Of a stretch of 64,000 nucleotides of DNA, positions 13,711 to 64,000 are shown in pieces. How positions within the stretch are numbered: the first letter of the stretch is position 1; each line of letters begins with the position of its first letter. The notes under the pieces were generated by a model that did no database searches, was not told where the DNA came from, and was given only the letters and a program-made list of their open reading frames with translations. Location of the stretch: NCBI GenBank assembly GCA_965205975.1, contig OZ242195.1:3424001-3488000 (forward strand). Direction: 5' to 3'. Source of the DNA: Candidatus Latescibacterota bacterium. GTDB taxonomy: Bacteria > Latescibacterota > UBA2968. A program made the position numbers and the translations under genes.

Positions 13711-13727
13711 CCTGAAAAAAGAATGAT

Positions 13728-14336: not shown

Positions 14337-14387
14337 GATTCTAAAAAAAATCAGGGAGTGCTGGTCATACAGAGCTTCAGAATGCAG

Positions 14388-14421
14388 AAAAGGGCTTGCA
14401 AGGTAGAATCCAAGCCCTTTT
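14388..14421. terminator. Bidirectional-type terminator
   Basis: AAAAGGGCTTG...CAAGCCCTTTT. Confidence 0.65.
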
Positions 14422-16976: not shown

Positions 16977-17042
16977 TTGATAAAGGTTTCCCCGTTCAGG
17001 GAATATTGAAACACCATAATACCAGAGAAAAGGAGTTTATCC

Positions 17043-20469: not shown

Positions 20470-20506
20470 AAATCGTGATCTAAAACACATAACAAACGGA
20501 GCAAAA

Positions 20507-21199
20507 ATGACGACAAATAAGGAACCGTTCGGGAGATCGCCCCCCGTCCAAGAATATGAAACGGAACCTATTCCAGTGTCTGCTCTACAACATGCGGTTT
20601 ACTGTCTGCGGCAATGCGCTCTGATCCACCTGGAACGACTTTGGGAGGAAAACCAATTTACTGCTGAAGGCAGGGTACTGCATCAGGTCATTGACCAACC
20701 GAGTTGGCAGCGCAAAGCAGGAGTACGCCAGGTGAGGGCACTTCCGATCTACAACATCCGGCTCAATCTCACAGGCGTCGCTGATCTGGTAGAGTTCCAC
20801 AAAGACCATACAGGTACAACACCGTTTCCGGTCGAGTTCAAACGCGGCAAAGCCAAGGCTCATCGCGCCGACGAGGTGCAACTTTGTGCCCAGGCCCTGT
20901 GCCTTGAGGAAATGACAGGTACAGAGGTGCCGATGGGGGCATTATTCTATAGGCGAACCAAACGGCGAAAGGAAGTAAAATTTGACGCTGAACTTCGCGC
21001 CTTAACCGAAGCAACTGTTGATCAAGTAGCCGCGCTCTTTGCGCGAAGACGCACGCCCCCAGCCGAATACGAAGCAGCCAAATGCCGTGCCTGCTCATTG
21101 CTTGACCAGTGTCGCCCGAAAGAGGTGGTGCGTTCAGCGCTCGCCTGGCGGTTACGCGCTCTGGAATTGCACCTTACCGAACAGGGAGGATATCAATGA
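20507..21199 (+). CDS. cas4: CRISPR-associated exonuclease Cas4
   Basis: YCLRQCAL, ADLVEF, PVEFKRG, QLCAQALCLEEM, C-terminal CRACSLLDQC. Confidence 0.93.
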   Translation: MTTNKEPFGRSPPVQEYETEPIPVSALQHAVYCLRQCALIHLERLWEENQFTAEGRVLHQVIDQPSWQRKAGVRQVRALPIYNIRLNLTGVADLVEFHKDHTGTTPFPVEFKRGKAKAHRADEVQLCAQALCLEEMTGTEVPMGALFYRRTKRRKEVKFDAELRALTEATVDQVAALFARRRTPPAEYEAAKCRACSLLDQCRPKEVVRSALAWRLRALELHLTEQGGYQ

Positions 21200-44180: not shown

Positions 44181-45926
44181 ATGAGCAAATCGAAAAGTGC
44201 CGCAGACATTAACATTCTCGACGCTGCCGAAAAATGGAAACAGCAATGCCTTTTGGATGGTGGATCGCTATTCTCGGAAGAATCTCTCTGGACCCGAGGA
44301 AACTTCGAACAACTCCGCATCCACTTTGTCCAGAATCCTGATAAAGGATCGGGTAAATTCTACGAGAAACTGGCGCAACAACTGGAACATGCTCCCCCAG
44401 AGGCGAAGCGTCTATGGGCTGAAATGACATGGGTACTTTTTTTAATCGTCTATCGCGGCGTGCTTAAACCAGAGACAAAACGCGCTCAGATCAGGCAAGT
44501 CTGGGAATGGTCGGGGTCGAAACTTCCGGATAATCATTGGGCACTGGGCGACGTCTTAGCAAAAGGGGTTACAAATCCAGGCCAAGCTTATAATACTTCC
44601 CGTTGGCGAGAATGCCGCTTCTTCATCACCACGATGATGAGCTGGTTTTCCCATTCCTCAGAGGATCGAAAATCGCTATTGACCGATCCCTGGGACTTTG
44701 CCGAATGGCTCGACGCTCAGGAGTACTGTCAAGGCCGTCAATTTCGACATGCTTTTCTGTACCTTCTGTTTCCGGATGCGTTTGAAGCAATTATGAGTCA
44801 AGGCCATAAAGAAAAAATAGTCAACGCTTTCTCAAAAAAATGGAATGAGAATCTGCTCACTAACGACGGGGATAACGTCGCTCTCGATCAAGCATTATTG
44901 AAAATTCGGAAACGCCTTAAGGACGAATACCCCGACACGGGAATCGACTTCTACAGTGCGCGGTTCAAGGATATTTGGCAATCCAGTCAGCCGCCTCCAC
45001 CACCGCCGCCACCGGAAGTGAGGGAAACAGCATTTCTTTTTGTTTCCTATTCCATAGAAAACATCCTGACAGAAGGCTGTTTTCTTCAACGAGAAAAACT
45101 GGAAACAATCCTTCAACGCCTCCGCGACAAGAAAAATCTAATCCTGCAAGGGCCTCCGGGCACGGGCAAAACATGGCTGGCAAAAAAGCTGGCCTTCGCC
45201 TTAATAGGTGAACGCAAAGAAGACAAAATACGCCCTGTGCAGTTTCACCCCAATCTTTCTTACGAAGATTTTGTCAGAGGATGGCGACCATCAGGCGACG
45301 GCAAGCTGGATCTGGTTGATGGCCCCTTTCTTCAGATGATAAACACCGCAAAAGACGATCCAGAGTCACAATATGCGATCATCATTGAGGAAATCAATCG
45401 CGGCAACCCCGCACAAATTTTTGGCGAGATGCTCACGCTACTGGAATCGGACAAGCGAAAAGAGACCGAAGCATTGGAACTGTCTTATCGAAAAAGAGAA
45501 GGCGAACGGGTTTACATTCCCGAAAACCTGTATGTCATCGGCACAATGAACGTTGCCGACCGCTCAATCGCTATGGTCGATTTCGCCCTTCGCAGGCGAT
45601 TCGCCTTTGTTGACCTTGAACCCATATTTGGCAATGTCTGGCAGGACTGGGTACATAATCAGTACAAAATAGACGAGGAATTTCTGCTACAAGTAGCAGA
45701 AAGAATGAATGTGCTGAACGAACAGATAGCTGGGGATGCTAATCTCGGTGCTCAATTCAGGGTGGGACACAGTTATGTAACGCCTTCCGCTGGGGAGATT
45801 GATGATTCCCATGAATGGTTCAAACAAGTAGTCGAAACCGAAATCGGCCCCTTGCTGGACGAATACTGGTTTGATGCGCTGGATACAGCCCAAAAGTCCC
45901 GAGAAAAACTACTGGAAGGGTTATAA
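44181..45926 (+). CDS. mcrB: McrB-family AAA+ GTPase of modification-dependent restriction
   Basis: GPPGTGKT, VQFHPNLSYEDF, EEINRG, GTMNVADRS, ALRRRF. Confidence 0.92.
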   Translation: MSKSKSAADINILDAAEKWKQQCLLDGGSLFSEESLWTRGNFEQLRIHFVQNPDKGSGKFYEKLAQQLEHAPPEAKRLWAEMTWVLFLIVYRGVLKPETKRAQIRQVWEWSGSKLPDNHWALGDVLAKGVTNPGQAYNTSRWRECRFFITTMMSWFSHSSEDRKSLLTDPWDFAEWLDAQEYCQGRQFRHAFLYLLFPDAFEAIMSQGHKEKIVNAFSKKWNENLLTNDGDNVALDQALLKIRKRLKDEYPDTGIDFYSARFKDIWQSSQPPPPPPPPEVRETAFLFVSYSIENILTEGCFLQREKLETILQRLRDKKNLILQGPPGTGKTWLAKKLAFALIGERKEDKIRPVQFHPNLSYEDFVRGWRPSGDGKLDLVDGPFLQMINTAKDDPESQYAIIIEEINRGNPAQIFGEMLTLLESDKRKETEALELSYRKREGERVYIPENLYVIGTMNVADRSIAMVDFALRRRFAFVDLEPIFGNVWQDWVHNQYKIDEEFLLQVAERMNVLNEQIAGDANLGAQFRVGHSYVTPSAGEIDDSHEWFKQVVETEIGPLLDEYWFDALDTAQKSREKLLEGL

Positions 45927-47038
45927 TGGACACCGTTCTAGAAAACGACAATCTGGGGTACATCGGAGAAATTCCAGTCAGAAATCTCTGGCTACTGATG
46001 CTTTATGCGTCCCAACTATTCCGACAGATAAACGATTTGCAAAAGAGAAAGGTTGAAGACAATCCCGACGACATCCCCGACCTGGTGGCTGAAATCCTGT
46101 CGTGGACGGTAGAACGTCGCTTGAGGCGAAACCTGAGCTTTGGCTACCAGCCCAAACAAGCTATCCTCAGCAGGGTGCGCGGCAGAATCGACCATATCCA
46201 TACAGAACGCCGCCAACTGCTGCACAGAGGTCTTGTTGCATGCCGGTTTGAAGAACTAACAGTAGATACACCACGCAACCGCTATGTTCGAGCGGCATTG
46301 GAAAAGTCGGCCAATATGGTACGAAGCGTTGACCTATCCCATCGATGTCGCGTCCTTGCCATCCGTTTAATGCACATGGGAGTGAATGGGGAACATCTTA
46401 TCCGACATGCCCCATCGGTAAATCTCACTGGTCGGATAGACACCGCTGACCGGCAGATGCTGGCTGCGGCACAACTGGCCTTCGATTTGGCACTGCCCAC
46501 CGAAACCGCTGGCCCCAGGAATTTATCTTCACCATCCCGCGAACCCCAATGGGTACGGAAACTTTATGAAAAGGCCATCGCCGGATTCTACGACGTCACG
46601 CTTACACAACGAAGGTGGAGAGTTCATCCCGGGCGACAACTCGATTGGTCCAAAGGTAAGAAGACTAAGGGTATTGATAACATCCTCCCAAAAATGCTCA
46701 CGGATATCGTTATAGACGATGTAGTTTTGGATCATCGTATCATCATAGACACTAAATTTACATCCATCCTTAAACCCGGAAATTACCGTACCCAAACATT
46801 GGCCTCACCCCATATATACCAGATATACGCCTACTTGAGATCCCAGGAAGGTTTGGGTGATCCTCTGGCGGACACGGCATCGGGCATACTCCTGTATCCT
46901 GCTATTAATTGCTCAGTTGACGAATCGGTTGACATACAGGGTCACAACATACGATTCGCCACCGTAAATCTCGACGCAACTCCTGGAGAGATCCGGCACA
47001 GGCTCCTTGAATTGATTGATCCCGCCCTGGTAAAATAA
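45926..47038 (+). CDS. mcrC: McrC restriction subunit
   Basis: IPVRNLWLLMLYAS, TDIV...IIIDTKF, YQIYAY; translationally coupled to mcrB. Confidence 0.92.
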   Translation: MDTVLENDNLGYIGEIPVRNLWLLMLYASQLFRQINDLQKRKVEDNPDDIPDLVAEILSWTVERRLRRNLSFGYQPKQAILSRVRGRIDHIHTERRQLLHRGLVACRFEELTVDTPRNRYVRAALEKSANMVRSVDLSHRCRVLAIRLMHMGVNGEHLIRHAPSVNLTGRIDTADRQMLAAAQLAFDLALPTETAGPRNLSSPSREPQWVRKLYEKAIAGFYDVTLTQRRWRVHPGRQLDWSKGKKTKGIDNILPKMLTDIVIDDVVLDHRIIIDTKFTSILKPGNYRTQTLASPHIYQIYAYLRSQEGLGDPLADTASGILLYPAINCSVDESVDIQGHNIRFATVNLDATPGEIRHRLLELIDPALVK

Positions 47039-47071
47039 AAAAACGCCATCAGCTATTTGCCGATGGCGTTT
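47037..47071 (-). terminator. Rho-independent terminator identical to 41455-41488
   Basis: AAAAAAACGCCATCAGCTATTTGCCGATGGCGTTT. Confidence 0.8.
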
Positions 47072-47147
47072 ATGCTTATCTTTGGTGCTTTCAAAGATCG
47101 TATGGTATCGCTAATTCCTCAGGGAGTTTTCGCAGATAGGCAGTACC

Positions 47148-47519
47148 CTACTGTTCTCCCACCCCATTGCCCATCTCGATGGATTGGGCGTTCGCAAGCG
47201 AAGTCACAAAATCAACATCTTTTGCATCCTTGCTTTTGATCAGGATAATTGGCTTATCAAGGGCAGATGCCATTCCAGCTTCATAGTTCACCCATTGTGA
47301 TTTGGCACTATTCGGCGTGACAATAATTACTACGTTACTCGCGCTACACATCTGTTGCTTTATCGCCTCCCGAACATCGTCACCAATCTTGGTATCTACG
47401 CGAAGATCAATAAACGACATGTCGTCGGTATCGTGACCAGACTTCTTCAATAATCTGGACACCTGTTCTGCAATATCACGGTCCTGATAAGCATAAGAAA
47501 GGAATACTTTTTTACTCAT
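47148..47519 (-). CDS. Stand-alone TIR-domain protein
   Basis: KVFLSYA, SAKSQWVNYEAG (conserved TIR Glu), KPII; AAGGAG RBS. Confidence 0.85.
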   Translation of the reverse strand: MSKKVFLSYAYQDRDIAEQVSRLLKKSGHDTDDMSFIDLRVDTKIGDDVREAIKQQMCSASNVVIIVTPNSAKSQWVNYEAGMASALDKPIILIKSKDAKDVDFVTSLANAQSIEMGNGVGEQ

Positions 47520-47642
47520 TCTCGCGCTCCTTATCCCGCCAGATATATTGACAAACGGGCATGTTGATCTATAATATACTGAAAGGGAAGAAATCCGAGG
47601 GATTTTTCATATCTAAAACCATCTAAAATCTCACTGCATAAA

Positions 47643-50135
47643 ATGATAGATATCAATAGACAACGCAATATACTGAGCCAGGTTGATCTTCTTAGATATA
47701 ACCTCGTTAAAAAGAAAAAAAAGAAAAACCACCTTGGCCAGTTCTTTACGCCTGCTCCGATAGCTGAGTTCATGGCACAGATGTTTCGCATATCAGAAGC
47801 CTCTGTTCATTTGCTTGATGCCGGTGCTGGAATAGGCTCTCTTTCTGCTGCTTTTGTCGATTATGTCTGCACACAGAAGCAGACCCCCAAGGAATTTACA
47901 ATCACAGCCTATGAAATTGATGCTTCATTGACGCCATTTTTAGAAAATACATTGAACGCCTGTCGCTCAAAATGTGAGCAACTCGGCATTCATTTTAGCT
48001 ACAAAGTGATCAATGAAGATTTTGTCAAAGCTGCTACATCTGCACTCAGACAAGATCTGTTCTCTCCTCCTGCCAAGAAGTTCAATTATGCTATTCTCAA
48101 TCCCCCCTACAAAAAAATCCAGAGTGCTTCTGAACACAGAAAATTATTGCGTCGCCTTGGGATTGAAACGAGCAATCTTTATACAGCCTTTCTGGCGATA
48201 ACAAAAAAATTGCTGACTGAAGAGGGACAACTCGTTGCAATTACACCGAGAAGCTTCTGCAATGGACCTTATTTCAAAGCATTTAGAAATGACTTTCTCG
48301 AAGAAATGGCATTAAAGAGAATTCACATCTTTGAATCCAGAAAAAGGGCCTTCAGCGACGATGGTGTCCTGCAAGAAAACATCATTTTCCATGCGATCAA
48401 ATCTAAGGCAACGCCATCAAAGATAGCGATCTCATCTCATTCATCTCCAAGAGATCCTCTATTCTGGAGAGATGTGGAATATAACCATGTGATACATCCA
48501 CAGGATCCTGATAAGTTCATTCACATCATTACAGATGAGACAGACCATCAAATAGCTGAAAAGATGAAGCATTTTCAATCAACTCTGGAGGAACTCGGCA
48601 TCTCGGTATCAACGGGCAGAGTTGTTGATTTCCGGGCGAACAAATTCTTGAAACAGGTACCAAATAAGAAAACAGTGCCCTTAATTTATCCCATGCATTT
48701 CCAGCAAGGTTTTGTTGAATGGCCCTCCAAAAACATTAAGAAGCCCCACGCCATTATTTCTTCAGAAGAATCCAAAAATTTATTGGTCCCTTCTGGCACG
48801 TATGTTTTGGTAAGGCGTTTCTCCTCAAAAGAAGAAAAACGCAGGGTCGTAGCTGCTATCTACGATCCAGAGCGAATAAAATCAGAAACAGTAGGCTTTG
48901 AAAACCATCTGAATTATTTCCATTGCAATGGAAAAGGGCTGCCTGCACATCTTGCAAAAGGGCTGGCAGTTTTTCTTAATTCAATGATGGTTGACGCTTA
49001 CTTCAGATTGTTCAACGGCCATACGCAGGTAAATGCTACGGACTTGAGAAGTCTTAAATACCCTTCAAAAGAAAAACTCGAATCTCTGGGGGCAAAAATT
49101 AAGGACAGATTACCGAATGGTGATGCGTTGGATGATTTAATTGAACAAGAGGTCTTTAATATGGCAAATGAAAGCGGGAAACCAGATCCAATCAAAAGAA
49201 AACAGAAGATAGAAGCAGCACTCGCAATTCTGAAATCTATTGGTATGCCAGGTGCCCAGCAGAATGAGCGTTCAGCATTAACCTTGCTGGCATTGATCGA
49301 TGTAAAATCTGAAACACAGTGGGAGGATGCGAATAATCCTTTGATTGGCATTACACCCATCATGAATTTTGCGGCTGATCATTATGGGAAACAATACGCA
49401 CCAAATACGAGAGAGACCGTTAGAAGACAGACAGTACATCAATTTTTGGATGCTGGCATTATCCGCATCAACCCCGATGACCCTGATAGACCGACCAATA
49501 GCCCTAATACGGTGTATCAAATTGAAAATTCTACTCTTGACCTGATTCGGTCTTATGGCAGTGCAAAATGGAATGACGAGTTAGAGAAATTCCTGCAATC
49601 AATAGAGACTTTGCAAGCGAAGTATGCACAGGAGCGTCAGGCAAGAAAAATCCCCGTTGATATTTCAAACACAACCCAGGTAAACCTCTCTCCTGGGGGA
49701 CAGAACGAGCTTGTTAAGAAAATCATTGACGATATGTTTCCCAATTTCGCACCTGATGGTACGGTAATCTATCTTGGGGATACCGCCAGCAAATTTGCCT
49801 ATTTTGACAGGAAAGCACTTGAAATGTTAGGCGTGGATATTGAAGACCACGGTAAGATGCCAGATGTAGTCATTCATCATAAGCAAAAAAATTGGTTGCT
49901 GCTTATTGAAGCTGTAACCAGTCATGGCCCTGTTGATCCAAAACGTCGAGGAGAGTTGCAACAACTCTTTGCAACCTCAAAAGCAGGACTTGTTTTTATT
50001 ACAACATTTTTGACTCGAAGAGATATGATGAGATATCTCTCTGAAATCTCCTGGGAAACAGAAGTCTGGATCGCTGAATCTCCAACACATATGATACACT
50101 TTGATGGGGAGAGGTTTCTGGGGCCTTATGAATGA
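47643..50135 (+). CDS. Fused N6-adenine methyltransferase and BsuBI/PstI-family restriction endonuclease
   Basis: MTase motifs GQFFTP, LDAGAGIG, NPPY, FNGHTQVNATDL; REase motifs YAPNTRETVRRQT, HGKMPDVV, IEAVTSHGP; one ORF. Confidence 0.9.
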   Translation: MIDINRQRNILSQVDLLRYNLVKKKKKKNHLGQFFTPAPIAEFMAQMFRISEASVHLLDAGAGIGSLSAAFVDYVCTQKQTPKEFTITAYEIDASLTPFLENTLNACRSKCEQLGIHFSYKVINEDFVKAATSALRQDLFSPPAKKFNYAILNPPYKKIQSASEHRKLLRRLGIETSNLYTAFLAITKKLLTEEGQLVAITPRSFCNGPYFKAFRNDFLEEMALKRIHIFESRKRAFSDDGVLQENIIFHAIKSKATPSKIAISSHSSPRDPLFWRDVEYNHVIHPQDPDKFIHIITDETDHQIAEKMKHFQSTLEELGISVSTGRVVDFRANKFLKQVPNKKTVPLIYPMHFQQGFVEWPSKNIKKPHAIISSEESKNLLVPSGTYVLVRRFSSKEEKRRVVAAIYDPERIKSETVGFENHLNYFHCNGKGLPAHLAKGLAVFLNSMMVDAYFRLFNGHTQVNATDLRSLKYPSKEKLESLGAKIKDRLPNGDALDDLIEQEVFNMANESGKPDPIKRKQKIEAALAILKSIGMPGAQQNERSALTLLALIDVKSETQWEDANNPLIGITPIMNFAADHYGKQYAPNTRETVRRQTVHQFLDAGIIRINPDDPDRPTNSPNTVYQIENSTLDLIRSYGSAKWNDELEKFLQSIETLQAKYAQERQARKIPVDISNTTQVNLSPGGQNELVKKIIDDMFPNFAPDGTVIYLGDTASKFAYFDRKALEMLGVDIEDHGKMPDVVIHHKQKNWLLLIEAVTSHGPVDPKRRGELQQLFATSKAGLVFITTFLTRRDMMRYLSEISWETEVWIAESPTHMIHFDGERFLGPYE

Positions 50136-54737: not shown

Positions 54738-54938
54738 ATGAAATTAGAATACGATTTCTCCAGAGCTGAAAGAGGAAAATTTTATCGCAAGGGCGCTGAA
54801 ATCCGGCTGCCAATTTACCTCGATGCGAAACTCCAGCATCAGCTTGAAAAGATCGCGGAGAAGAGAGGGAAAGATTTGGGCGAGATGGTGCATCAACTAT
54901 TGAAAAAGGAAGTGGAACGCGTTGGTGCATTGCCCTGA
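54738..54938 (+). CDS. Orphan CopG/BrnA-like antitoxin
   Basis: MKLEYDFSRAERGKFY...LPIYLD...MVHQLLKKE. Confidence 0.7.
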   Translation: MKLEYDFSRAERGKFYRKGAEIRLPIYLDAKLQHQLEKIAEKRGKDLGEMVHQLLKKEVERVGALP

Positions 54939-55119: not shown

Positions 55120-55605
55120 TCAGGGAACTGGAACTTTCAATATATACGTCACAAACCCCAACGCGATTGTCAAAAAAGCAACACCAACTGTGACAGTCCA
55201 AAAAATACGTTGACCTATACCCTCAATTTTATCATCAACATAGTTTCTCAATTCTATTTGACCCTCTTGAATGCTGCTGATCGTCTTGTCAATTTTATCA
55301 TCAACATGCATTCTCAATTCTATTTGACCCTCTTGAATGCTGCTGATCGTCTTATCCATATTCTCAATAAGTGTTTCCAGCCTGACAAGACGCTTATCGA
55401 GCTTGTTGATCGCCCTTTCGTTCTGCTGAATACGCTCTTCATTCAGGTCTATTCGTTTATCCAACCGTTTCAAAGTCTCACGATGATCTATATCATGACC
55501 TTCTAACCTCTTGAGTATCTCAATTTGAGTCGCCTGATATTCTTCCGAATTTTTAACATACCGCTCAAGGATGGACACATCCGGCCCTTCTTGCGTGGCA
55601 GCCAT
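55120..55605 (-). CDS. Coiled-coil protein with a 22-aa tandem repeat and C-terminal transmembrane helix
   Basis: DKTISSIQEGQIELR occurs twice (66-bp unit near 55224-55355); hydrophobic IFWTVTVGVAFLTIALGFVTYIL; GAGG RBS. Confidence 0.7.
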   Translation of the reverse strand: MAATQEGPDVSILERYVKNSEEYQATQIEILKRLEGHDIDHRETLKRLDKRIDLNEERIQQNERAINKLDKRLVRLETLIENMDKTISSIQEGQIELRMHVDDKIDKTISSIQEGQIELRNYVDDKIEGIGQRIFWTVTVGVAFLTIALGFVTYILKVPVP

Positions 55606-55729
55606 ATCGCACCTCTGCAATAATGGAAAAATCAACCGTAATGAAACCAAACAGCGTATAATAATGACAAGATAGCAGAAAATAACATGCTAACAAAGCA
55701 TTTTCTGCCAGATAAGCACCTGACTATGA

Positions 55730-55854
55730 GGGAGCTGAAATCTGACCGCCCATTTACCTCAATGCAAAACCCCAGCACCGGCTTGAACACATCGCTCAGA
55801 AAATAGGCGAAGATTTGGGCGAATGGTGCATCAAATCTTGAAAGCGGAAGTGGA
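55730..55854 (+). pseudogene. Degenerate duplicate of the 3' part of the 54738..54938 antitoxin
   Basis: GAEI*PPIYLNAKPQHRLEHIAQKIGEDLGE versus GAEIRLPIYLDAKLQHQLEKIAEKRGKDLGE. Confidence 0.8.
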
Positions 55855-55883
55855 TTGAAATTTTAAGCGCACGATGTTATACT
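55855..55883 (+). promoter_or_regulatory. Putative sigma70 promoter of the CARF-bEBP gene
   Basis: TTGAAA-17 bp-TATACT with extended -10 TG. Confidence 0.6.
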
Positions 55884-55919
55884 ACAAAAGTCAATGGAAT
55901 GTCTCAAGAGGATAATGAT

Positions 55920-57563
55920 ATGCAACATAAATTGGTCGCTGTAGTCGGCAGCACACCGCAAGTTATGACAGAAACTTTCTGGGCATTGCGTGTCCAGCGC
56001 AAAGTGCCCATTGATGAAGTATTTGTGATAACGACAACCGTAGGTAAAGAAACCTGTCAGAAACGCCTTTTGGATGAAGGCCGCTTTAAAAAGATGTTGT
56101 CAGATTACAATATCGATCCCAATACTGTCGCGTTCGGTCCCGATCATATCCAGGTATTTGAAGATGCTGAAGGTAATCCTTTAGACGATATCCGCACCTC
56201 GGAAGACAATCGCCTGGCCCGGGATCAACTTTTCCACTGGATTGAGAACTGGACGCAGAATGTTGATGTCGCTTTACACTGCTCGCTCGCAGGCGGACGG
56301 AAGTCAATGGGATACTTACTCGGTGCTGCTATTCAATTTTTTGGTCGGCCACAAGATCGCCTGTATCATGTGCTGGTCACACCGCAAGCAATTGAAACAA
56401 ATCGCGATTTCTTCTTTCCACCTGTGCGCGAAGCGCAAATCCCCACATCAGACGGGCAACACATTTCTACTGCTGATGTGCGTATTGAGTTGGCAGAATT
56501 GCCCTATGTATCGGTAAGAGATATATCCGCATTTGACGATGAAAACTATGACCTGATTCTACAGAAAACACAAGCAGAAGTGCGACGTGTTCCACGTCTA
56601 AAAGCAGAAAACAAGCGACTGAGAGAAACATCGGGCAATGCTGGCGGCTTGATCGGAAATAGCTTTGCAATGCAGAAAAACAAAGACCAGATTCGGCAAG
56701 CTGCTGATGCAGATGGTGCAACCGTGTTGATTTTGGGTGAAACGGGAACGGGTAAAGAACGGGCAGTTGAAGCACTACATGAACAGAGTGTGAGAAAGGA
56801 TAAATCATTCATAGCGATTAACTGTAGTGCATTTCCAGGTGAACTTTTGGATGTAGAGCTATTTGGTGCAGTTGAAGGCGCTTATAGTGGACAAGCCGGG
56901 CCACGCGAGGGTGCGTTTCGCGCAGCCGAAGGTGGTACCCTTTTCCTCGATGAAATAGGAGACTTATCACATGAAGGACAGGCGAAGCTATTGCGCGTAT
57001 TACAAGAAAAGAAAGTGCGTCCGCTTGGCAGTGATGAACAAGAGAAAGAAGTTGATGTACGCATTGTTGCGGCAACCAATCGCGATTTGAAGGCCATGGT
57101 TCAAGAAGGAACTTTCCGAGAGGACCTATTGTATCGCCTCAATGTTTTGACCATTGACATGCCGCCGTTGCGAGAACGACGCGAAGATATACCGGAGTTA
57201 ATCGACCTGTTTTGTGAACAGTTTAATGAGAAATACAAACGCAATGTTGTGGGCTTTGATACCCCAGCCATAGAAGCCATGTGTCGCTATACCTGGCCGG
57301 GCAATGTGCGCGAGCTTGAAAATGAAGTTGCGCGCATCGTCTCTGACTCACCACAGAGTGCATTTCGGGTGCATAAGGAAGACTTAGCCAAGCGTATTAT
57401 TGAATCGACAGATTTAGACACGGGTAGTGGTACGCTCAAAGAATTAGTGGCGCAATTTAAGAGGCATACGATTCAGGAAACATTGGCGCGAACACAGGGC
57501 AATGTTAAAAACGCCGCGAAGATACTGGGTATTGACGAATCAACGGTGAGACGAAATCGGTAG
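55920..57563 (+). CDS. CARF (NE0113/Csm6 ring-nuclease type) domain fused to sigma54-dependent AAA+ activator and Fis-type HTH
   Basis: N-terminus VGSTPQVMTET, ITTT, CSLAGGRKSMG, DRLYHVLV. Central GETGTGKE, ELFGAVEGAYSG, LFLDEIGDL, QAKLLRVLQE, FREDLLYRLN, WPGNVRELEN. C-terminus GNVKNAAKILGID. ATG 55920 behind GAGGA (alternative start 55899). Confidence 0.9.
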   Translation: MQHKLVAVVGSTPQVMTETFWALRVQRKVPIDEVFVITTTVGKETCQKRLLDEGRFKKMLSDYNIDPNTVAFGPDHIQVFEDAEGNPLDDIRTSEDNRLARDQLFHWIENWTQNVDVALHCSLAGGRKSMGYLLGAAIQFFGRPQDRLYHVLVTPQAIETNRDFFFPPVREAQIPTSDGQHISTADVRIELAELPYVSVRDISAFDDENYDLILQKTQAEVRRVPRLKAENKRLRETSGNAGGLIGNSFAMQKNKDQIRQAADADGATVLILGETGTGKERAVEALHEQSVRKDKSFIAINCSAFPGELLDVELFGAVEGAYSGQAGPREGAFRAAEGGTLFLDEIGDLSHEGQAKLLRVLQEKKVRPLGSDEQEKEVDVRIVAATNRDLKAMVQEGTFREDLLYRLNVLTIDMPPLRERREDIPELIDLFCEQFNEKYKRNVVGFDTPAIEAMCRYTWPGNVRELENEVARIVSDSPQSAFRVHKEDLAKRIIESTDLDTGSGTLKELVAQFKRHTIQETLARTQGNVKNAAKILGIDESTVRRNR

Positions 57564-57597
57564 AGCATCGAAAATCCCAAAATATGAATTGAAAGGC

Positions 57598-57745
57598 GTG
57601 CAGAATTGCACAGCCCGTGCAAAAATGCACGTTTAAACATATTGCTGTTTATTTCCTGTTTCAAAAAAATATCACACAACCTGTTGTTTTTTTTGATCTC
57701 TGAGGAAATTTCGGAGATTTTTTTGTGTTTGGCACGCGGATTGCA
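57598..57745 (+). promoter_or_regulatory. Sigma54 promoter 1 (upstream of cas6) with paired palindromic UAS and IHF-like site
   Basis: GTGCAGAATTGCAC 57598-57611, GTGCAAAAATGCAC 57617-57630, CAACCTGTTGTT 57677-57688, TGGCACGCGGATTGCA 57730-57745. Confidence 0.85.
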
Positions 57746-57792
57746 TATACAATGAGTGCTATCGCAAAAATCCAAATACAAAGGAGATATTG

Positions 57793-58752
57793 ATGTTTGA
57801 TCTGAAATTCGCGTATATGCGCTTGCACTTCAAAGCGCGGGGCCATCTGCGCCTGCCATCTTATAAAGGCTCCACATTTCGCGGGGCTTTTGGCGTGGCA
57901 TTTAAGCGCGCGGTCTGTATTGTGCAACACGGGGAATGCGAGCGGTGTCTGATTCGGACGCAATGCGTGTATCCATACGTATTTGACACACCAGTAGATA
58001 ATGCACAGGGCATATTTCGCGGATATAGCGAAGCACCCCATCCCTATCTGATCGAACCCCCGCTGGAAACCAAAACCGATTATGCACCGGACGATGAATT
58101 TGCGATTGGCCTGACCCTGATAGGCCGCGCACTGAATTACATGCCCTACTTCATCTACACATTCCAGCGCATGGGAGACACAGGTATTGGACGCGGACGC
58201 GGCAAATGCGACCTCATCTCGGGCGAAGCACTGCACACCGATGGGACATGGCAGGCGGTGTACGACGGAGCGAGCGAGATGTTGCAACAAGATGTACCCC
58301 ATCTGACCGCGCAGGATCTGATGCACAACGAAATAGGATCCCGGATTCGCCTCTCATTTGTAACGCCCACCCAACTCAAAGCAGACCGAATATTACAGCG
58401 CGGACTGGATTTCCCCGTACTCATACGCGGGTTATTGCGGCGGTATTCGGCATTGGCCGCATTTCACGCAGACGGACCGCCAGATATAAATTATGCCGAC
58501 TATGTCGCACAAGCAGAGAATATTCAAACCACATCCCACAATTTGACCTGGCGCACATGGGAACGGTATTCAAACCGCAAAAACCGGCGTATGAGCGTAA
58601 GTGGTTTTACAGGAGACGTGGTCTTTGAAGGCGACATGACACAATTTCACCCCCTGCTGGCACTGGGCGTGCCAATGCACGTTGGCAAATGGACCAGTTT
58701 TGGGATGGGACAATACGCTATAGAAGGAAGAAGTGTGAAGGAAGAAGTGTGA
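57793..58752 (+). CDS. cas6: Cas6 pre-crRNA endoribonuclease (with Cys-rich insert)
   Basis: GSTFRGAFG, C..CERC...C, FVTP, C-terminal Gly-rich loop HVGKWTSFGMGQY; AAGGAG RBS. Confidence 0.9.
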   Translation: MFDLKFAYMRLHFKARGHLRLPSYKGSTFRGAFGVAFKRAVCIVQHGECERCLIRTQCVYPYVFDTPVDNAQGIFRGYSEAPHPYLIEPPLETKTDYAPDDEFAIGLTLIGRALNYMPYFIYTFQRMGDTGIGRGRGKCDLISGEALHTDGTWQAVYDGASEMLQQDVPHLTAQDLMHNEIGSRIRLSFVTPTQLKADRILQRGLDFPVLIRGLLRRYSALAAFHADGPPDINYADYVAQAENIQTTSHNLTWRTWERYSNRKNRRMSVSGFTGDVVFEGDMTQFHPLLALGVPMHVGKWTSFGMGQYAIEGRSVKEEV

Positions 58753-58777
58753 AGAAGGGCAGCATATAGCCAAATAA

Positions 58778-58926
58778 GTGCAAAATTGCACAGAGGACGT
58801 GCAGAAATGCACGCTTGAACATGTTGGTGTCAATTTGATTTTAGAAAAAATATCGTATAACATATTGTTTTCTCGTAAATTAAAAAATAAATTCAAATTT
58901 TCTTCTACTTTGGCACGCGGATTGCA
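58778..58926 (+). promoter_or_regulatory. Sigma54 promoter 2 (upstream of ykvA-cmr genes) with paired palindromic UAS and IHF-like site
   Basis: GTGCAAAATTGCAC 58778-58791, GTGCAGAAATGCAC 58799-58812, TAACATATTGTT 58858-58869, TGGCACGCGGATTGCA 58911-58926. Confidence 0.85.
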
Positions 58927-58989
58927 TAGACAAGAGGTGATCGCAAAAAAGTTTTTTAATCCGCAGTAAAAACCAAATGGAGGAAAACC

Positions 58990-59340
58990 ATGAAAAATCG
59001 AAACAAGCAGGGATATGGGAAATATTATTCTCAGGACAGCTTCTGGAAAAAGTTGCTCAAATTCTCACGCACCGCAGGACGGGAAGTCGTCGAGCAAGCC
59101 CTATCGCTCTACTACACCGCGCAGGCTCCTGATACACCGGCCTGGGCCAAAACAGTCATCACCGGGGCACTGGGGTACTTTATTCTTCCGGCCGATGCAA
59201 TTCCCGACCTGATCCCGGCCGTCGGTTACGGCGATGATCTGGGTGCGCTGGCCGCAGCACTCGCAGCCGTGGCGGCCCATGTAACGCCGGAGATCAAAGC
59301 CCGTGCAAAGGAAAAAGCAGCCGAGTGGTTTGGTGAGTGA
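58990..59340 (+). CDS. YkvA/DUF1232-family membrane-associated protein
   Basis: FWKKL, TPAWAK..I.GALGYFILPADAIPDLIPAVGYGDDL; GGAGG RBS. Confidence 0.9.
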   Translation: MKNRNKQGYGKYYSQDSFWKKLLKFSRTAGREVVEQALSLYYTAQAPDTPAWAKTVITGALGYFILPADAIPDLIPAVGYGDDLGALAAALAAVAAHVTPEIKARAKEKAAEWFGE

Positions 59341-59632
59341 AGTGTAATCCGCAGAAAAAAACGCGAATAATTTGAGCGTTTTTCGCAGATGACGCAGATA
59401 AATAAAGAAGGGCTGCGGTTTGGGTGAACTGACCACTGACCGCTAAAAAATGAAGTGTGAAATGGTGTATAACTGGCTACAGTCCAGGCCTGTTCACGGT
59501 GAAGGGGGATAAACTGCGTAACCTATTGCGCTATTTCTACCGATATTGTATCCTGCGTAATTCACAGCATCATGGCCGGGTTAGTTGCTCGATTTTTGAA
59601 GGTGGAGTGATCTGCTGCGGTTATAAGAATCA

Positions 59633-60091
59633 ACGTGATGTGTGACTTTAAATAGACAAAAAGAGGTTCCTCGGCTATCTTGGATTGTCCGTAAAACAAG
59701 AAGCCATGCAACGAAAGGAACCTCCAATGTATAATTTAGCCCTTTTTGTCATTACAATCTACTGTTTTATTGAAGACGACCTCTATCCAGCGTATTGTGA
59801 GGTGCATGGCAAGCCGCGTCGGGCAGGCTTTGAACCCGGTTTAAGTGATGTGGAATGCCTCACCATAGAAATTGTGGGTCACTTTTTGGGGTATTCAAGC
59901 CAGAAGAAACTTTATGAGCAGATGCGCGAACACTTTTTGCGCGCATGAAAGTGCGAGATGCTTGGCATCTATTAAACTTGTGGCATACCAAAATCTTAAC
60001 CCATACCATGTGTGTCTTTCTAAATATCATCAATTACAGAGACCCGCTGGATTTTGACGGCCTCGTAACATTTTGAAGTCACACATCGCGT
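59633..60091 (+). mobile_element. Internally deleted IS982-family-like insertion sequence
   Basis: TIRs ACGTGATGTGTGACTT / AAGTCACACATCGCGT; flanking 9-bp near-duplication TAAGAATCA / TAAGAATAA; truncated transposase N-terminus (RRAGFEPGLSDVECLTIEIVG..LG). Confidence 0.75.
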
Positions 60092-60159
60092 TAAGAATAA
60101 AGTGTATAGAAACCCATACGTGTGGGGACAATACGGTTTAATTTGAAAGGAGAAGCGTG

Positions 60160-61011
60160 ATGAATAGGACAGTGTTGAATCTTGAAACCGTGACACCAAT
60201 GTTTCTACATGGAGAGAATAGTCGAAATCTCGAACTTCGACCACCGCCATTCAAATCACTGATGCGTTATTGGTGGCGAACTGTGCAGGATTGCAACGAG
60301 ACATTTCTTCGAGAAAAAGAAGCAGCGTTATTTGGTAGTACAAAAGGTAAATCACCATTTTCAATTCGTATTTTAGGAGAAACGAAACTGGACTGTAGGA
60401 ACTATAAGCCGTTGCCTCATCGAACCGATAATCGTGGTTTTTTCGCAGATGCTTATAAAGAGGGACAGTCATTTGACCTGTATCTGATTATAACGAATGG
60501 CTCAAATGTCCCGAATTATGCACAGATTGCAAAACTTGGCTTACTACTCGGTGGTGTTGGCAATCGCTCTCGACGCGGATTCGGTTCGATCCGGGAAACA
60601 AGCTGGAATTTCACAAATGTGTCCAATCTGCGACAGGAAATTTTGGATACTCTCAACACTGTCGCAGACAATGATCGTTTTCAGATGAAGGGCAAGATCA
60701 TTGAATCCAAACTCACCCATTTCCCAAGCTATCCTGTTATTCAGTGTATATTTTTTGGCAACCCAACACCCGATGTTGACACCCTATTAAGAAAAATCGG
60801 ACAGGCGACACATGAAGCAAAGAGAAAAAATCGTGACCATACACTCGGAGAAGGTACGCCGCGTATGGCATCGCCTGTGATCGTTAGAATCCAAAAAGTT
60901 GGAAATAAATTTATTCCGGTTGTCACGCAACTTCACTCGATTTATCCGCAATACACGCCAAATAATTTTGAGCAGAAGCAAAAGGATTTTATTAACGCGA
61001 TCATTACGTAG
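60160..61011 (+). CDS. cmr1: Type III-B RAMP protein Cmr1
   Basis: ETVTPMFLHG, ELRPPPFKSLMRYWWR, LFGST, GGVGNRSRRGFGS, RMASPV. Confidence 0.9.
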   Translation: MNRTVLNLETVTPMFLHGENSRNLELRPPPFKSLMRYWWRTVQDCNETFLREKEAALFGSTKGKSPFSIRILGETKLDCRNYKPLPHRTDNRGFFADAYKEGQSFDLYLIITNGSNVPNYAQIAKLGLLLGGVGNRSRRGFGSIRETSWNFTNVSNLRQEILDTLNTVADNDRFQMKGKIIESKLTHFPSYPVIQCIFFGNPTPDVDTLLRKIGQATHEAKRKNRDHTLGEGTPRMASPVIVRIQKVGNKFIPVVTQLHSIYPQYTPNNFEQKQKDFINAIIT

Positions 61012-61022
61012 GAGGTATCCCA

Positions 61023-62906
61023 ATGAGTGGCAACCAGTCGAAACGTCTCATGCTCATGTTTACAATTGGTCCTGTACAATCGTTCATCGAAGCAGCCCGG
61101 AAGACAGAGGACTTGTGGATGGGGAGTTATATTCTGTCTTATCTCATCGCCAAAGCAATGGACAAAGTTCGAGGCGACGATATTGAGCTAATATATCCTG
61201 CTATTGGCAACCAATCGCCATTTGATTTTTGGCAGCAACAAGATTTCGCAACCCCATCTTTTCCCAATCTCTTTTTAGCAATTGGTAAAGGCACTGAGGT
61301 TTCTCAGGATGCGTTGGTCGAACTCGCAAAAGACGCTGAACGTACTGTAAAAACTGAATTTGAGCAAATGGCTAAATGTGTGATTGATGAAGCATTCAGC
61401 AAGTGGAGTGGCACTTATGTTGAGGAAGTGTTCAAACGACAAATCTCGGATTTTTTTGATATATATTGGGTGATTACTGAAGAAACAGATCAAAATTATG
61501 GGGATTGGTACGCCCACACCGCAGGTAGTCTTGCAGCTATCAAAAACTGCCGGACATTTGCACAAATCTGTGAGTTTGGACGAAAGTGTTCACTTGATGG
61601 AACACGCGAAATTCTCCATTTGAGGCAAGACGAACCTGTGCGAGAAGCAATGAAATGGTGGCAGGGTTTTGCTGAACGCGAACCAAAGTATTGTCGCGGA
61701 GAAGAGGCCCTCTGTGCTGTCTCACTAACCAAGCGAATGGGAAGACATTTTCTGGAGACCCAATCGGAATTTTCAGACGATTTTTCAGGCCAACCTCTGA
61801 GCTTTCCATCCACATCAGAGATAGCGACAGCGGACTTCAAAGAACAATTTCAATACAATATTGGGGCCTTAGGCATTTATGGAGATTTCGTTAAAGAAGT
61901 TAAAAAACTGAGGGCATTGGACAACAAACCAGCAGATATTCCAATTGTTCAACCCTTGCCAAAAGTCGGGATGCTCCAGGGGAATATTGACGGCGAATGG
62001 CTGTACGAAGAGACATGGAGCGAGTCCTATCTGAGAGGTTACTACAACATTGATGCAAAAAACGAGAAGAAGCAGATTAGTACTTGTAAGAGATTGCGTC
62101 AAAAACTTGTCCAATATCTCGGTGAACCGGGGCGATATTATGTCGCCATTGCACTTGATGGAGATAACATGGGCGAGAAGATTCGGGAAGCTAAAAGCAA
62201 GGAAGATCACAAAAAACGTAGCGGTGATCTGATTCAATACACGGAAGATGCTCGTCGGATTATTGAACAGGATCATCTCGGAAAGTTGATATATGCGGGC
62301 GGTGACGACATTCTTGCACTCACAAATCTTAAAGACCTCTTGCCTATATTGAAAGGGTTGCGTGAGAAATTCCCCAATTTCACGACAGCTTCGGCAGGCG
62401 TGTGTATTGCTCACAACAAGGTTCCGCTTGGAGATGTACTTCAGCAAGCGCGTCGGATGGAGAAAGCAGCGAAAAATGAAGGTGAACGTAATGCATTTGG
62501 AATCACACTGTTCAAACACTCTGGAAATATTAGCCAGGCGGTAACAAAGTGGACACACGGCGATTTGGATGTGCTCGACATCAGTGAGGAGTTGCTCAAC
62601 TTGTTGAGCGATAATGAAATTTCCAAGCGTTTTTTGTACGCTTTCCGTGAGACATTTGCAAAATTAATTGAAGACAAAGATGATTTTGGAGAACTGGGCC
62701 GTCACCTTATTCAAGCTGAGTTTGAACGGATTATGGAACGAGCACAGTCGAACAAAAAAACAGAATCCAAAGAGAGTCAACAAACCATCCATACACTTAC
62801 TCAACTCATCTATCATATCCAGCCTTTCTCTCACTTTCTCGGGTATTTAGAAATTATCAATTTCATTGCGAGGATAAAAAATGAAACTGTTTCTCCAACC
62901 CAATGA
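61023..62906 (+). CDS. cas10: Type III-B Cas10/Cmr2 (HD-less, intact GGDD palm)
   Basis: FTIGPVQSFIEAARKTEDLWMGSYILS, FPSTSEIA, ALDGDNMG, LIYAGGDD. Confidence 0.93.
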   Translation: MSGNQSKRLMLMFTIGPVQSFIEAARKTEDLWMGSYILSYLIAKAMDKVRGDDIELIYPAIGNQSPFDFWQQQDFATPSFPNLFLAIGKGTEVSQDALVELAKDAERTVKTEFEQMAKCVIDEAFSKWSGTYVEEVFKRQISDFFDIYWVITEETDQNYGDWYAHTAGSLAAIKNCRTFAQICEFGRKCSLDGTREILHLRQDEPVREAMKWWQGFAEREPKYCRGEEALCAVSLTKRMGRHFLETQSEFSDDFSGQPLSFPSTSEIATADFKEQFQYNIGALGIYGDFVKEVKKLRALDNKPADIPIVQPLPKVGMLQGNIDGEWLYEETWSESYLRGYYNIDAKNEKKQISTCKRLRQKLVQYLGEPGRYYVAIALDGDNMGEKIREAKSKEDHKKRSGDLIQYTEDARRIIEQDHLGKLIYAGGDDILALTNLKDLLPILKGLREKFPNFTTASAGVCIAHNKVPLGDVLQQARRMEKAAKNEGERNAFGITLFKHSGNISQAVTKWTHGDLDVLDISEELLNLLSDNEISKRFLYAFRETFAKLIEDKDDFGELGRHLIQAEFERIMERAQSNKKTESKESQQTIHTLTQLIYHIQPFSHFLGYLEIINFIARIKNETVSPTQ

Positions 62907-64000
62907 TACCTTCTTTTTTCGCGACGGGCGTCCTTTTACAAAAGGTGAACAGTCTGAAGGTCATTCAATTTTTCCACCCCTTCCCTCGACAGTTCTCGGT
63001 GCGTTGCGTACTGCATACATCGCTGAATTTGGTGATCTATCGCTTTTCTATTCCGGCGGGATGCGAGAGACGATTGGTACGCCGGAATCATTGGACAATG
63101 CTATTCAAGTGCGCAGTGTTTTTCTTGCAAATAAGCGAAACAATCAGATGGATCGAATGGAAATATTTTTTCCGGTGCCCCTTGATCTGGTATATAAAAA
63201 AACAAAAACTGAAAAGAGAGATGATCATACCCTCCTTCATTTACTGGTGCCGCAATCTAAAAATTTTGTGTCGAATGGGATAATCAGCACGCCACTTACA
63301 TGGCTAAATTCCGAGTCTATTGATTTCGATGCAGATGGATTGTTGCGACTGGGGGCAATCACACGATACTTACAAGGAAACAGTCAGAACCTGCTTCTTA
63401 CAAATCGGGCAACATTGGTTAAGCGCGAAACCAAAACGGGCATCGCGCGGGATAGACACACTTTGTCATCCGAAGAACACATGTTGTATCGTGTTGATAT
63501 GTCCAGATTTAAAAATAGAGATGGCAATTACGGCTTTTTGGTAGAATATGAATGCTCCAGGAATTTGCCACAAAAAGGACTTTTGAAATTAGGTGGAGAA
63601 GGCAAAGGTTTTGTCTATCAGCACAGCAACTATGATATTGATCCACTGTCCAGCCGTCTTGAGGCAGTCAAACGTGCCATCCAATCAACAAACAGATTCA
63701 AGCTATATTTTGCAACGCCGACCATATTCCGGAACGGATGGTTGCCTTCATGGTTGAATAGCGATACGCTTTCGGGTGAATACCCACTGGAGAATACGGC
63801 ACCAATTTCAATCAAATTAATCACCGCCGCGGTTGGTAAACCTGTTCCTGTTGGCGGATGGGACATGGCAAAAGGTGAGGCAAAACCCACTTATCGCGCA
63901 GTACCTGCTGGTAGCGTCTATTACTTTGAACTGATGGATAAAAATCGAATTGATGATTTAATCGCCGCTTTTCACTACCAAAACATCAGCGAGGAGCGTT
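62881..64000 (+). CDS. cmr3: Type III-B Cmr3 (runs off the window end)
   Basis: MKLFLQPNDTFFFRDGRPF, FPPLPSTVLGALRT, KLGGEGK, YFATP, GGWD, AVPAGSVYYF. Missing from the ORF track because it has no stop in the window. Confidence 0.92.
   Translation, partial: MKLFLQPNDTFFFRDGRPFTKGEQSEGHSIFPPLPSTVLGALRTAYIAEFGDLSLFYSGGMRETIGTPESLDNAIQVRSVFLANKRNNQMDRMEIFFPVPLDLVYKKTKTEKRDDHTLLHLLVPQSKNFVSNGIISTPLTWLNSESIDFDADGLLRLGAITRYLQGNSQNLLLTNRATLVKRETKTGIARDRHTLSSEEHMLYRVDMSRFKNRDGNYGFLVEYECSRNLPQKGLLKLGGEGKGFVYQHSNYDIDPLSSRLEAVKRAIQSTNRFKLYFATPTIFRNGWLPSWLNSDTLSGEYPLENTAPISIKLITAAVGKPVPVGGWDMAKGEAKPTYRAVPAGSVYYFELMDKNRIDDLIAAFHYQNISEER

Follow-up and report, generated by a model that had tools for sequence, protein, structure and literature searches.

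We analysed a 64,000-nt window (C1:3424001-3488000) of the genome of an uncultured Candidatus Latescibacterota bacterium, which is a single contig of 5.56 Mb, and describe here a gene at the head of a type III-B (Cmr) CRISPR locus that encodes a putative sigma-54 enhancer-binding protein with a CARF sensor domain, hereafter called the regulator. Coordinates are those of the window unless stated otherwise; the locus continues in two consecutive stretches of the same contig, L001 (position 1 is window position 54001) and L002, which continues from L001. The regulator gene (55920-57563, plus strand) is followed on the plus strand by cas6 (57794-58752, alternative start 57790; CRISPR_Cas6 in Pfam, E 4.8e-19, and Cas6 in PADLOC, E 2.8e-99), by the gene of a small DUF1232 protein (58990-59340; DUF1232 in Pfam, E 3.2e-12) that is a conserved companion of the regulator, by cmr1 (60157-61011; RAMPs in Pfam and TIGR01894 in NCBIfam), by cas10/cmr2 (61023-62906; 627 amino acids (aa), with a GGDD motif, identified by Pfam, NCBIfam and the motif) and by cmr3 (62881 to L001 10056, i.e. 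64056; Pfam and profile search), which runs off the window. Beyond it are the gene of a 423-aa CARF protein (L001 10053-11324), cmr4, cmr5 and cmr6 (L001 11351-13761), a second APE2256-type gene that matches CARF7--CARF_DUF2103 in PADLOC (L001 13697-14497, or 67697-68497, outside the window), a CRISPR array of 39 identical 37-nt repeats and two degenerate ones (68835-71786), the gene of a CRISPR-associated primase-polymerase (PrimPol; L001 18539 onward) and, in L002, cas1 and cas2. All the parts of a type III-B system (cmr1, cas10/cmr2, cmr3-6, cas6 and the array) were thus found.

The Cas10 protein, the only one in the genome, contains the sequence IYAGGDDILAL, which confirms the GGDD motif reported in the initial annotation; no HD domain was found in it by Pfam or by inspection of the sequence. 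The 423-aa CARF protein matches CARF7--CARF_RelE over its full length (PADLOC, E 1.7e-97) and is of the Cami1 kind, so that a cyclic oligoadenylate (cOA) effector is encoded in the operon itself. Judged from its genes, the type III-B system of this locus is complete: its Cas10 is cOA-competent, and at least one of its proteins is a bona fide cOA effector. The initial annotation had placed the regulator directly upstream of cas6 and cmr1-cas10-cmr3. The gene identities and the adjacency of cas6 stand, but the DUF1232 gene and an internally deleted repeated element (about 59640-60107, plus strand) come before cmr1. This element, recognised by comparison of its copies, is labelled an insertion-sequence remnant because of its copy number: four fuller copies in the genome have about 590 bp more between the two matching segments, which gives about 1.06 kb for the full element. 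It contains an 87-aa open reading frame (ORF) with no Pfam match, and is absent from the closest relative, L006. At the equivalent place, the related locus L013 has an intact IS4/5-family transposase gene.

The ORF of the regulator (55899-57563, plus strand) has 554 codons if the alternative start at 55899 is used, but the ATG at 55920, giving 547 aa, is the likely start: it has AAGAGGA 8 nt in front of it, and the protein is 547 aa long in the database too. The domain positions given below follow the 554-aa ORF. The Pfam matches are Cas_NE0113 (PF09623; residues 19-208, E 2.6e-38, 132.3 bits against a cut-off of 23), Sigma54_activat (residues 251-419, E 2.4e-62, 210 bits against 20.2), AAA_lid_14 (residues 425-504) and the Fis-type helix-turn-helix (HTH) domain HTH_8 (residues 519-552, 30.2 bits against 22); NCBIfam adds TIGR02584 (cas_NE0113; E 1.8e-54, 185 bits against 80.65). 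Together with the PADLOC matches described below, these confirm the CARF-sigma-54 AAA+-HTH protein of about 547 aa that the initial annotation had recognised. Walker A (GETGTGKE), Walker B (FLDEIG) and the arginine-finger region are intact, and Walker A and B are retained in 93 of the 95 family members of at least 480 aa. The genome has one rpoN gene (Sigma54_DBD E 1.9e-59, in a 497-aa open frame), whose presence the earlier proposal of a sigma-54 circuit had presupposed, and about 21 full-length Sigma54_activat matches; sigma-54 regulation therefore appears to be heavily used by this organism. By its domains, the regulator is a bacterial enhancer-binding protein in which the usual sensor is replaced by a CARF domain of the cOA-binding kind.

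The identity of the sensor was examined by profile and by structure. In PADLOC, its best assignment is CARF5--CARF (E 1.2e-73); the matches include also CARF5--CARF_TM, CARF5--CARF_ADA and the RtcR, RtcR_PspF1 and RtcR_PspF2--CARF_AAA_HTH profiles, and no combined CARF5-AAA profile was matched among the PADLOC profiles. The names of the PADLOC CARF profiles presumably derive from the CARF classification of Makarova et al. 2020. The RtcR-type PADLOC profiles match the AAA+/HTH half alone (residues 233-552). Similarly, the RtcR, NorR, NifA and similar models of NCBIfam align only from about residue 220 onward, the alignments of NF038308 and the PADLOC RtcR profiles starting at residues 226-254 with their CARF part unmatched, and the Pfam RtcR domain has no match in the regulator at E 0.01 or better. 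Thus, in the comparison that the initial annotation had proposed between the Cas_NE0113 and RtcR types of CARF, it is the NE0113/CARF5 type that matches. The earlier wording "NE0113/Csm6-type" holds for NE0113/CARF5 but not for the Csm6 effector family, although NCBIfam labels TIGR02584 as "ring nuclease Csm6".

An AlphaFold model of residues 8-247 (mean pLDDT 88.7, pTM 0.84) was compared with the Protein Data Bank (PDB) by Foldseek, and all the top matches were CARF domains that bind or handle cOA. The best were the CARF domain of Cad1 with cA6 or cA4 (E about 2e-6 to 3e-6, TM score 0.66-0.73 on the target), followed by the ring nucleases Sso2081 and Sis0455 (Crn1) and, more weakly, Csm6, Can2 and Cam1; a search of the PDB by sequence alone gave the same CARF families with weak E-values. 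The CARF nature of the N-terminus is thus borne out by Pfam, NCBIfam, PADLOC and the predicted structure. When two copies were modelled together, the dimer scored 0.81, against 0.00 for the best of three controls, with a contact agreement between runs of at least 93% and a partner pLDDT of at least 89. The mark for a dimer was reached by 20 of 30 proteins solved as one-chain pairs and by 1 of 23 solved as single chains, counts that are only rough because an alignment of our own was used; furthermore, CARF dimers have already been solved, so that the result may reflect likeness to them. The predicted models have a Rossmann-like CARF fold in a symmetric dimer, whose interface includes the invariant SLAGGRKSMG loop (GGRK) and a parallel pairing of the long linker helices (residues 214-238 of the fragment). 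By analogy with these relatives, cOA would be the ligand of the CARF domain. The domain may also cleave cOA, since its relatives are labelled ring nucleases, but that label does not decide the matter.

Promoter-like sequences at the locus are arranged in a manner consistent with this protein type. Ahead of the regulator gene itself is a sigma-70-like promoter (TTGAAA-17-TATACT with TG before the -10 element; 55855-55883, plus strand; 10 of 12 matches), and the promoter scan found no -24/-12 element there. Sigma-70-like sites occur in the region at chance level (8 found, 7.0 expected), and the regulator promoter is a consensus match only. In contrast to this gene, cas6 is preceded by a sigma-54 promoter, TGGCACGCGGATTGCA (57730-57745, plus strand; GG at -24 and GC at -12), with a palindrome pair, GTGCAGAATTGCAC and GTGCAAAAATGCAC (57598-57630), found by motif search, as a candidate enhancer (upstream activating sequence). 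The DUF1232 gene has a sigma-54 promoter of the same sequence (58911-58926, plus strand), with the pair GTGCAAAATTGCAC and GTGCAGAAATGCAC (58778-58812) as its candidate enhancer; motif and conservation support both promoters and this second pair. A terminator-like hairpin with a T run (57695-57719, plus strand), seen also in the cas6-promoter regions of relatives, lies between the regulator gene and the sigma-54 promoter of cas6. A motif search revealed a third sigma-54 promoter, TGGCACGCTTTTTGCA, at L001 18261 (72261, outside the window), with the palindrome pair GTGCGTTTTTGCAC and GTGCATTTTTGCAC; transcription from it would first cross a CRISPR repeat, a REP-like element and a degenerate repeat and then enter PrimPol-cas1-cas2. 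All three promoters are close to the sigma-54 consensus, and the motifs that they share are TGGCACG-N4-TTGCA for the promoter and GTGCA-N4-TGCAC for the palindrome. The centres of the two palindromes of a pair are 19-21 bp apart, and the palindromes lie, as computed from the coordinates, about 131-157 bp upstream of the expected transcription start, which is the position of an enhancer and not that of an operator. Starts are expected about 12 nt beyond the GC of the -12 element, near 57756, 58937 and L001 18287. In the conserved AT-rich block between palindromes and promoter, no IHF consensus was seen by eye.

These motifs are concentrated at the locus. In the 20-kb locus there are 10 occurrences of TGGC-N8-TGC where 2.81 would be expected, and no shuffled sequence out of 200 had as many as 10. 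The longer promoter motif occurs 19 times in the genome, three of them in the type III-B locus, and the strict palindrome in 10 places, five of them in the locus. Tandem pairs of the relaxed palindrome, 17-23 bp apart, number exactly three in the 5.56-Mb genome; all are in the locus, each at the same distance upstream of a sigma-54 promoter. The genome-wide list shows no strict sigma-54 promoter within 300 bp of the five palindromes that stand alone elsewhere in the genome.

The third enhancer-promoter cassette (181 bp; in L001 18075-18410, or 72075-72410, outside the window) stands where a spacer would be expected, flanked by two slightly degenerate CRISPR repeats at the far end of the array, and a transcript from it would start about 6 nt ahead of a repeat. 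The "spacer" that follows consists mostly of a REP-like palindrome, GGGCGAGGCATGCCTCGCCC, which has 33 copies in the genome. A one-spacer mini-array producing a regulatory crRNA was considered for this arrangement and was rejected, because the spacer is largely a copy of that 33-copy element.

A search of the protein database for relatives, with residues 1-240 of the regulator as the query, gave 1548 matching proteins at E 0.001 or better, the threshold used; 120 of them were listed, of which roughly the first 100 combine PF09623 with PF00158, and the remaining ones are stand-alone NE0113 proteins of about 360-415 aa. A search of species-representative genomes gave 108 confirmed loci, and among the best 80 of these the full-length fusion is found in Candidatus Latescibacterota only, in 12 loci (L005-L016). 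Two loci from other phyla, L017 and L078, were rejected: only their AAA+ part matched, and their ORFs (450 and 453 aa) are too short for the fusion. The CARF part was matched at E 1e-10 or better in 19 of 168 Latescibacterota genomes, with 13 of the matches in open frames of at least 550 aa. In the window and the 12 related loci, cas6 adjoins the regulator gene without exception (13/13). A DUF1232 gene follows in 9 of the 11 loci with enough flanking sequence (the flanks of L005 and L011 are too short for this call) and is absent from L008 and L009. Cas10 is encoded within 10 kb of the regulator in 10 of 11 loci with enough flank, and all 10 of these Cas10 proteins keep GGDD; the link of the homologues to type III loci, which the initial annotation had proposed to survey, thus holds.

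The promoters persist as well. Downstream of the regulator gene, a sigma-54 promoter is found in 12 of 12 Latescibacterota loci with sequence available there. When 10 promoter regions were aligned, no variation was seen in TTTGGCACG, TTGC and the palindrome half-sites, even though between the loci that share these -24/-12 elements the regulators are only about 47% identical. Three promoters have TTGCG at the -12 element, namely those of L008 and L010 and the cas6 promoter of L016. A promoter-plus-palindrome cassette also precedes PrimPol orthologues (77-97% identity) in five of eight loci, the window genome included, and one of the three loci without it is a truncated contig. Upstream of PrimPol paralogues (41-44% identity) it was found in none of seven loci. 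Since promoters with paired palindromes precede cas6, DUF1232/cmr and the adaptation operon and persist in relatives, we consider it very probable that the regulator acts on these predicted sites.

The effector genes beside the regulator are of four architectures in the window and its relatives: Cmr (the window and L006), Csm with an HD-Cas10 and Csm2 (L009 and L010), a short Cas10 with several RAMPs (L012, L013 and L015), and a cold-shock-domain-RAMP fusion of about 850 aa with a short Cas10 (L007, L014 and L016). The last module, an unusual one at about 12400-20900 in each of its three loci, consists of a protein of about 850-875 aa that joins an N-terminal cold-shock domain to RAMP domains, a short Cas10 with GGDD (531-547 aa) and a RAMP protein of 596-801 aa. 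The CARF7-DUF2103 gene of the window genome matches only positions 119-352 of the 353 in its profile. It lacks the first 132 residues of a 374-aa homologue that sits behind csm5 in the III-A locus L009, to which the rest is 92.5% identical, and the same short form is found behind cmr6 in the closest III-B relative. This comparison suggests that the short form is a scar left when a Cmr module replaced a Csm module in place.

On the basis of these results, we propose an enhancer-binding protein that is activated by cOA and turns on the transcription of cas6, of DUF1232 with the effector operon, and of the adaptation operon; we regard this reading as rather probable. The regulator would be made constitutively, probably from the sigma-70-type promoter, and would sit as a dimer on the paired GTGCA-N4-TGCAC sites upstream of the three sigma-54 promoters. 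Recognition of target RNA by the Cmr complex would start cOA synthesis at the GGDD palm of Cas10. The product would probably be cA4, which is the ligand of the Cami1-like CARF-RelE protein encoded in the operon. Binding of cOA at the CARF dimer interface would shift the coiled-coil linker and free the AAA+ domains to assemble, and ATP hydrolysis would then open the closed complexes of sigma-54 polymerase. In NtrC1 and DctD, a linker of this coiled-coil type can keep the AAA+ domains locked as an inactive dimer, and this precedent is the reason why we suppose the release of an inhibitory dimer here. Transcription would rise for cas6 (crRNA maturation), for DUF1232 with the cmr operon, and for the PrimPol-cas1-cas2 adaptation operon; the outcome would be positive feedback on interference together with infection-triggered spacer acquisition. 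The initial annotation had already suggested that cOA switches this activator and thereby changes the transcription of cas6 and cmr. The conserved promoters support the step from the regulator to the cas genes, and we infer the remainder, namely cOA as the ligand, activation rather than inhibition as its effect, the release of an inhibitory dimer and the use of sigma-54 by this protein.

Several observations weigh against this proposal. One of them lies in the loop by which such activators contact sigma-54. At the GAFTGA position the regulator reads GAYSGQ, in which the aromatic residue and the Thr/Ser are kept but the last residue is changed; the full sigma-54-activator domain of the initial annotation is therefore right as to the Sigma54_activat match and Walker A/B, but the domain departs from the canonical form in this loop. 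Of the 95 family members of at least 480 aa, 92 retain the aromatic residue and Thr/Ser. The loop divides the 95 into two subfamilies, about 47% identical overall: 59 members have G[AT]Y[TS]G[QL], 33 have GAFTGA, GAFTDA, GAFTNA, NAFTGA, NAFTNA or GAFSGA, and three are outside the search pattern. No test of Gln or Leu as the final residue of this loop is known to us, and the variant makes the use of sigma-54 by the regulator a matter of inference. Some descendants of enhancer-binding proteins work independently of sigma-54, and about 21 proteins of the genome could in principle act at -24/-12 elements, to judge from their full-length Sigma54_activat matches. It is therefore conceivable that the regulator is a plain DNA binder at the palindromes, either a repressor or a sigma-70 activator, and that the -24/-12 elements are served by another activator or are relics. 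However, Walker A, Walker B and the arginine-finger region are intact, the sister subfamily with the GAFTGA-type loop shares these promoters and palindromes, loci with such divergent regulators do not differ in their -24/-12 elements, and the palindromes, at about 130-155 bp upstream of the start, are in the place of enhancers. We consider a loss of sigma-54 dependence very improbable.

Other points concern the ligand and whether it activates or inhibits. The only CARF enhancer-binding protein characterised so far, RtcR, is reported to be unresponsive to oligoadenylates (PMC9650030); its control is ascribed to RtcAB binding and RNA-derived signals (PMC9650030, PMC7790460). The AAA+/HTH half of the regulator is closest to PADLOC RtcR_PspF2 (E 2.2e-102), and the operon encodes a RelE-type RNase that would make cyclic-phosphate RNA ends. 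The protein could thus be a sigma-54 activator of the CRISPR promoters whose CARF senses something other than the cOA made by Cas10, such as linear or 2',3'-cyclic-phosphate breakdown products of oligoadenylates, RNA fragments from CARF-RelE, or a partner protein as proposed for RtcR. This is unlikely: the regulator does not match the CARF part of the RtcR profiles, its sensor groups with CARF5, its model resembles the cA4- or cA6-bound CARF of Cad1 and Crn1, and GGDD is kept in every one of the 10 neighbouring Cas10 proteins. A further difficulty arises from the promoters themselves, since sigma-54 promoters are usually silent without their activator; an effector operon that is silent and yet depends on its own product for activation needs some basal expression. 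Negative feedback would escape this bootstrap problem: the unliganded regulator would keep the promoters on and cOA would shut them off, or the CARF would be mainly a ring nuclease that serves as an off-switch or timer. In favour of this, NE0113/CARF5 relatives carry ring-nuclease annotations, two such enzymes, Sso2081 and Sis0455, are among the nearest folds, and the nearly invariant Thr of the TPQ motif of the regulator aligns with what we take to be the position of the catalytic Ser of Sso2081. However, in most enhancer-binding proteins the sensor domain keeps activity off until the signal relieves it. Moreover, Cad1, the closest solved CARF, did not cleave cA4 or cA6 in one study (PMC11645235), so that the CARF fold does not predict cleavage. 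Such a reversed or transient response seems distinctly unlikely to us, and sequence alone does not decide the sign.

The remaining points against a cOA-activated regulator of all three operons come from the genomes. The insertion remnant between the DUF1232 promoter and cmr1 makes co-transcription of the cmr genes with DUF1232 uncertain here, and in this genome the cmr genes may have escaped strict control. The closest III-B relative (G080) has the array, but within 17 kb downstream it has no PrimPol-cas1-cas2 and no third promoter. In L008, the regulator, cas6 and promoter are present and no Cas10 is encoded within 10 kb. At 12080-21641 of that locus, the type III effectors are replaced by FGE-sulfatase-domain proteins, an ankyrin-repeat protein, a Ser/Thr kinase, a DUF4407 protein and an FHA protein.

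Among known systems, the cOA-activated regulator proposed here is best described as an RtcR-like CARF enhancer-binding protein joined to cOA-to-transcription signalling of the Csa3 or CalpL/T/S kind. It shares with RtcR the order CARF, sigma-54 AAA+, HTH_8 and the principle that a nucleotide or RNA signal leads to sigma-54 transcription, and its AAA+/HTH half matches NF038308 (E 3.9e-86) as well as RtcR_PspF2. Unlike RtcR, it has a CARF of the NE0113/CARF5 clade and the GAYSGQ variant of the loop, and it is encoded beside cas6, DUF1232 and cmr genes and not beside an rtcBA RNA-repair operon; the lack of response of RtcR to oligoadenylates would be another difference. Csa3, a regulator of archaeal and bacterial CRISPR loci, also couples a CARF sensor to the transcription of cas genes, including those for adaptation: binding of cA4 has been shown structurally (PMC8844856), and Csa3a controls cas1/cas2 as summarised in PMC10013973. 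However, Csa3 is a CARF-wHTH protein that binds DNA in one step, without an ATPase and with the housekeeping polymerase, whereas the AAA+ motor and the sigma-54 promoters of the present system would give tight off-states and a large dynamic range. CalpL-CalpT-CalpS is another route by which a type III cOA signal changes transcription (PMC12669027, PMC11417357), but its sensor, part of a SAVED-Lon protease, is SAVED and not CARF, and it works through proteolysis of an anti-sigma factor and a sigma factor of the sigma-70 family (extracytoplasmic function, ECF). Cad1 and the stand-alone NE0113/CARF5 proteins belong to the same CARF clade by profile, and the CARF of Cad1, which binds cA4 and cA6 (PMC11645235), is the closest solved fold; their output is adenosine deamination or none, with no transcription module. 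A precedent for cas genes behind a sigma-54 promoter is the CRISPR-associated operon of Myxococcus xanthus (MXAN7280), which has an Nla28-dependent sigma-54 promoter, although Nla28 is a starvation-induced enhancer-binding protein and not a CARF protein of a CRISPR locus (PMC9765219).

The initial annotation knew of no characterised example of this architecture, and the literature searches agree: no published description of a CARF5-AAA+-HTH regulator at a CRISPR locus was found in the literature covered, outside of which lies the CARF classification of Makarova et al. 2020. In the accessible portion of PMC4012209, RtcR and RtcR-like CARF-NtrC-type AAA+-HTH proteins are tied to RNA repair or restriction-modification and not to CRISPR, and NE0113 is described as a CARF family without effector domains. 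In the excerpts of the 2025 CRISPR classification that include its supplementary table 2, transcriptional regulators are among the cOA effectors but no sigma-54 fusion appears (PMC12669027), and the accessible part of a 2023 review of CRISPR regulation names Csa3 and no CARF-sigma-54 regulator (PMC10013973). For a link between DUF1232 and CRISPR, the literature search returned one unrelated preprint only.

Other features of the window may be added here. A type I-C CRISPR-Cas locus (cas3, cas5d, csd1/cas8c, cas7, cas4 and cas1; 14763-22230) is located 35 kb upstream, and none of the three tandem palindrome pairs of the genome falls within it. Between the two CRISPR loci is a defence island (44181-50135) with an McrBC-like pair (AAA_5 and McrBC), an 830-aa protein in which an N6 methylase is fused to a BsuBI/PstI endonuclease and, encoded on the minus strand, a TIR-domain protein (ThsB-like). 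Nearer to the regulator are a 66-aa ORF for a ribbon-helix-helix (CopG-type) protein (54738-54938), a decayed second copy of the 3' half of this ORF (55690-55850), immediately upstream of the regulator promoter, and a 176-aa coiled-coil ORF on the minus strand (55120-55650), which contains a 66-bp tandem duplication (2.0 copies, 95% identical) and has only weak Pfam matches, under the cut-off.

Type III signalling mostly ends in cell-damaging enzymes, such as RNases, DNases, proteases and deaminases, and in membrane proteins. To our knowledge, only two routes from this signalling to transcription, Csa3 and CalpL/T/S, have been described. As far as the sequences tell, the feature reported here is real and its wiring is conserved across relatives, and probably the sensing of an invader switches defence genes on. 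If so, type III signalling would reach transcription by a third route, one driven by ATP, whose switch would combine a very tight off-state with an on-state that ATP powers, and interference would be linked directly to adaptation: sensing of an invader would raise crRNA processing, effector supply and spacer acquisition together. RtcR-type regulators would gain a relative with a guessable ligand, so that CARF control of an AAA+ ring could be tested with defined ligands (cA3, cA4 and cA6) and promoters, and this direct testability should interest CRISPR and sigma-54 specialists alike. The conserved cassette with its exchangeable effector modules would also be a clean natural case of type III module shuffling. 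To the broadest form of the proposal we give an even chance: a cOA-gated sigma-54 activator would be the master switch of the CRISPR regulon, one enhancer motif would make cas6, the effector operon with DUF1232, and PrimPol-cas1-cas2 inducible by the messenger, and regulator-cas6-DUF1232 would form a portable control unit, joined to at least four different type III effector modules in Candidatus Latescibacterota.

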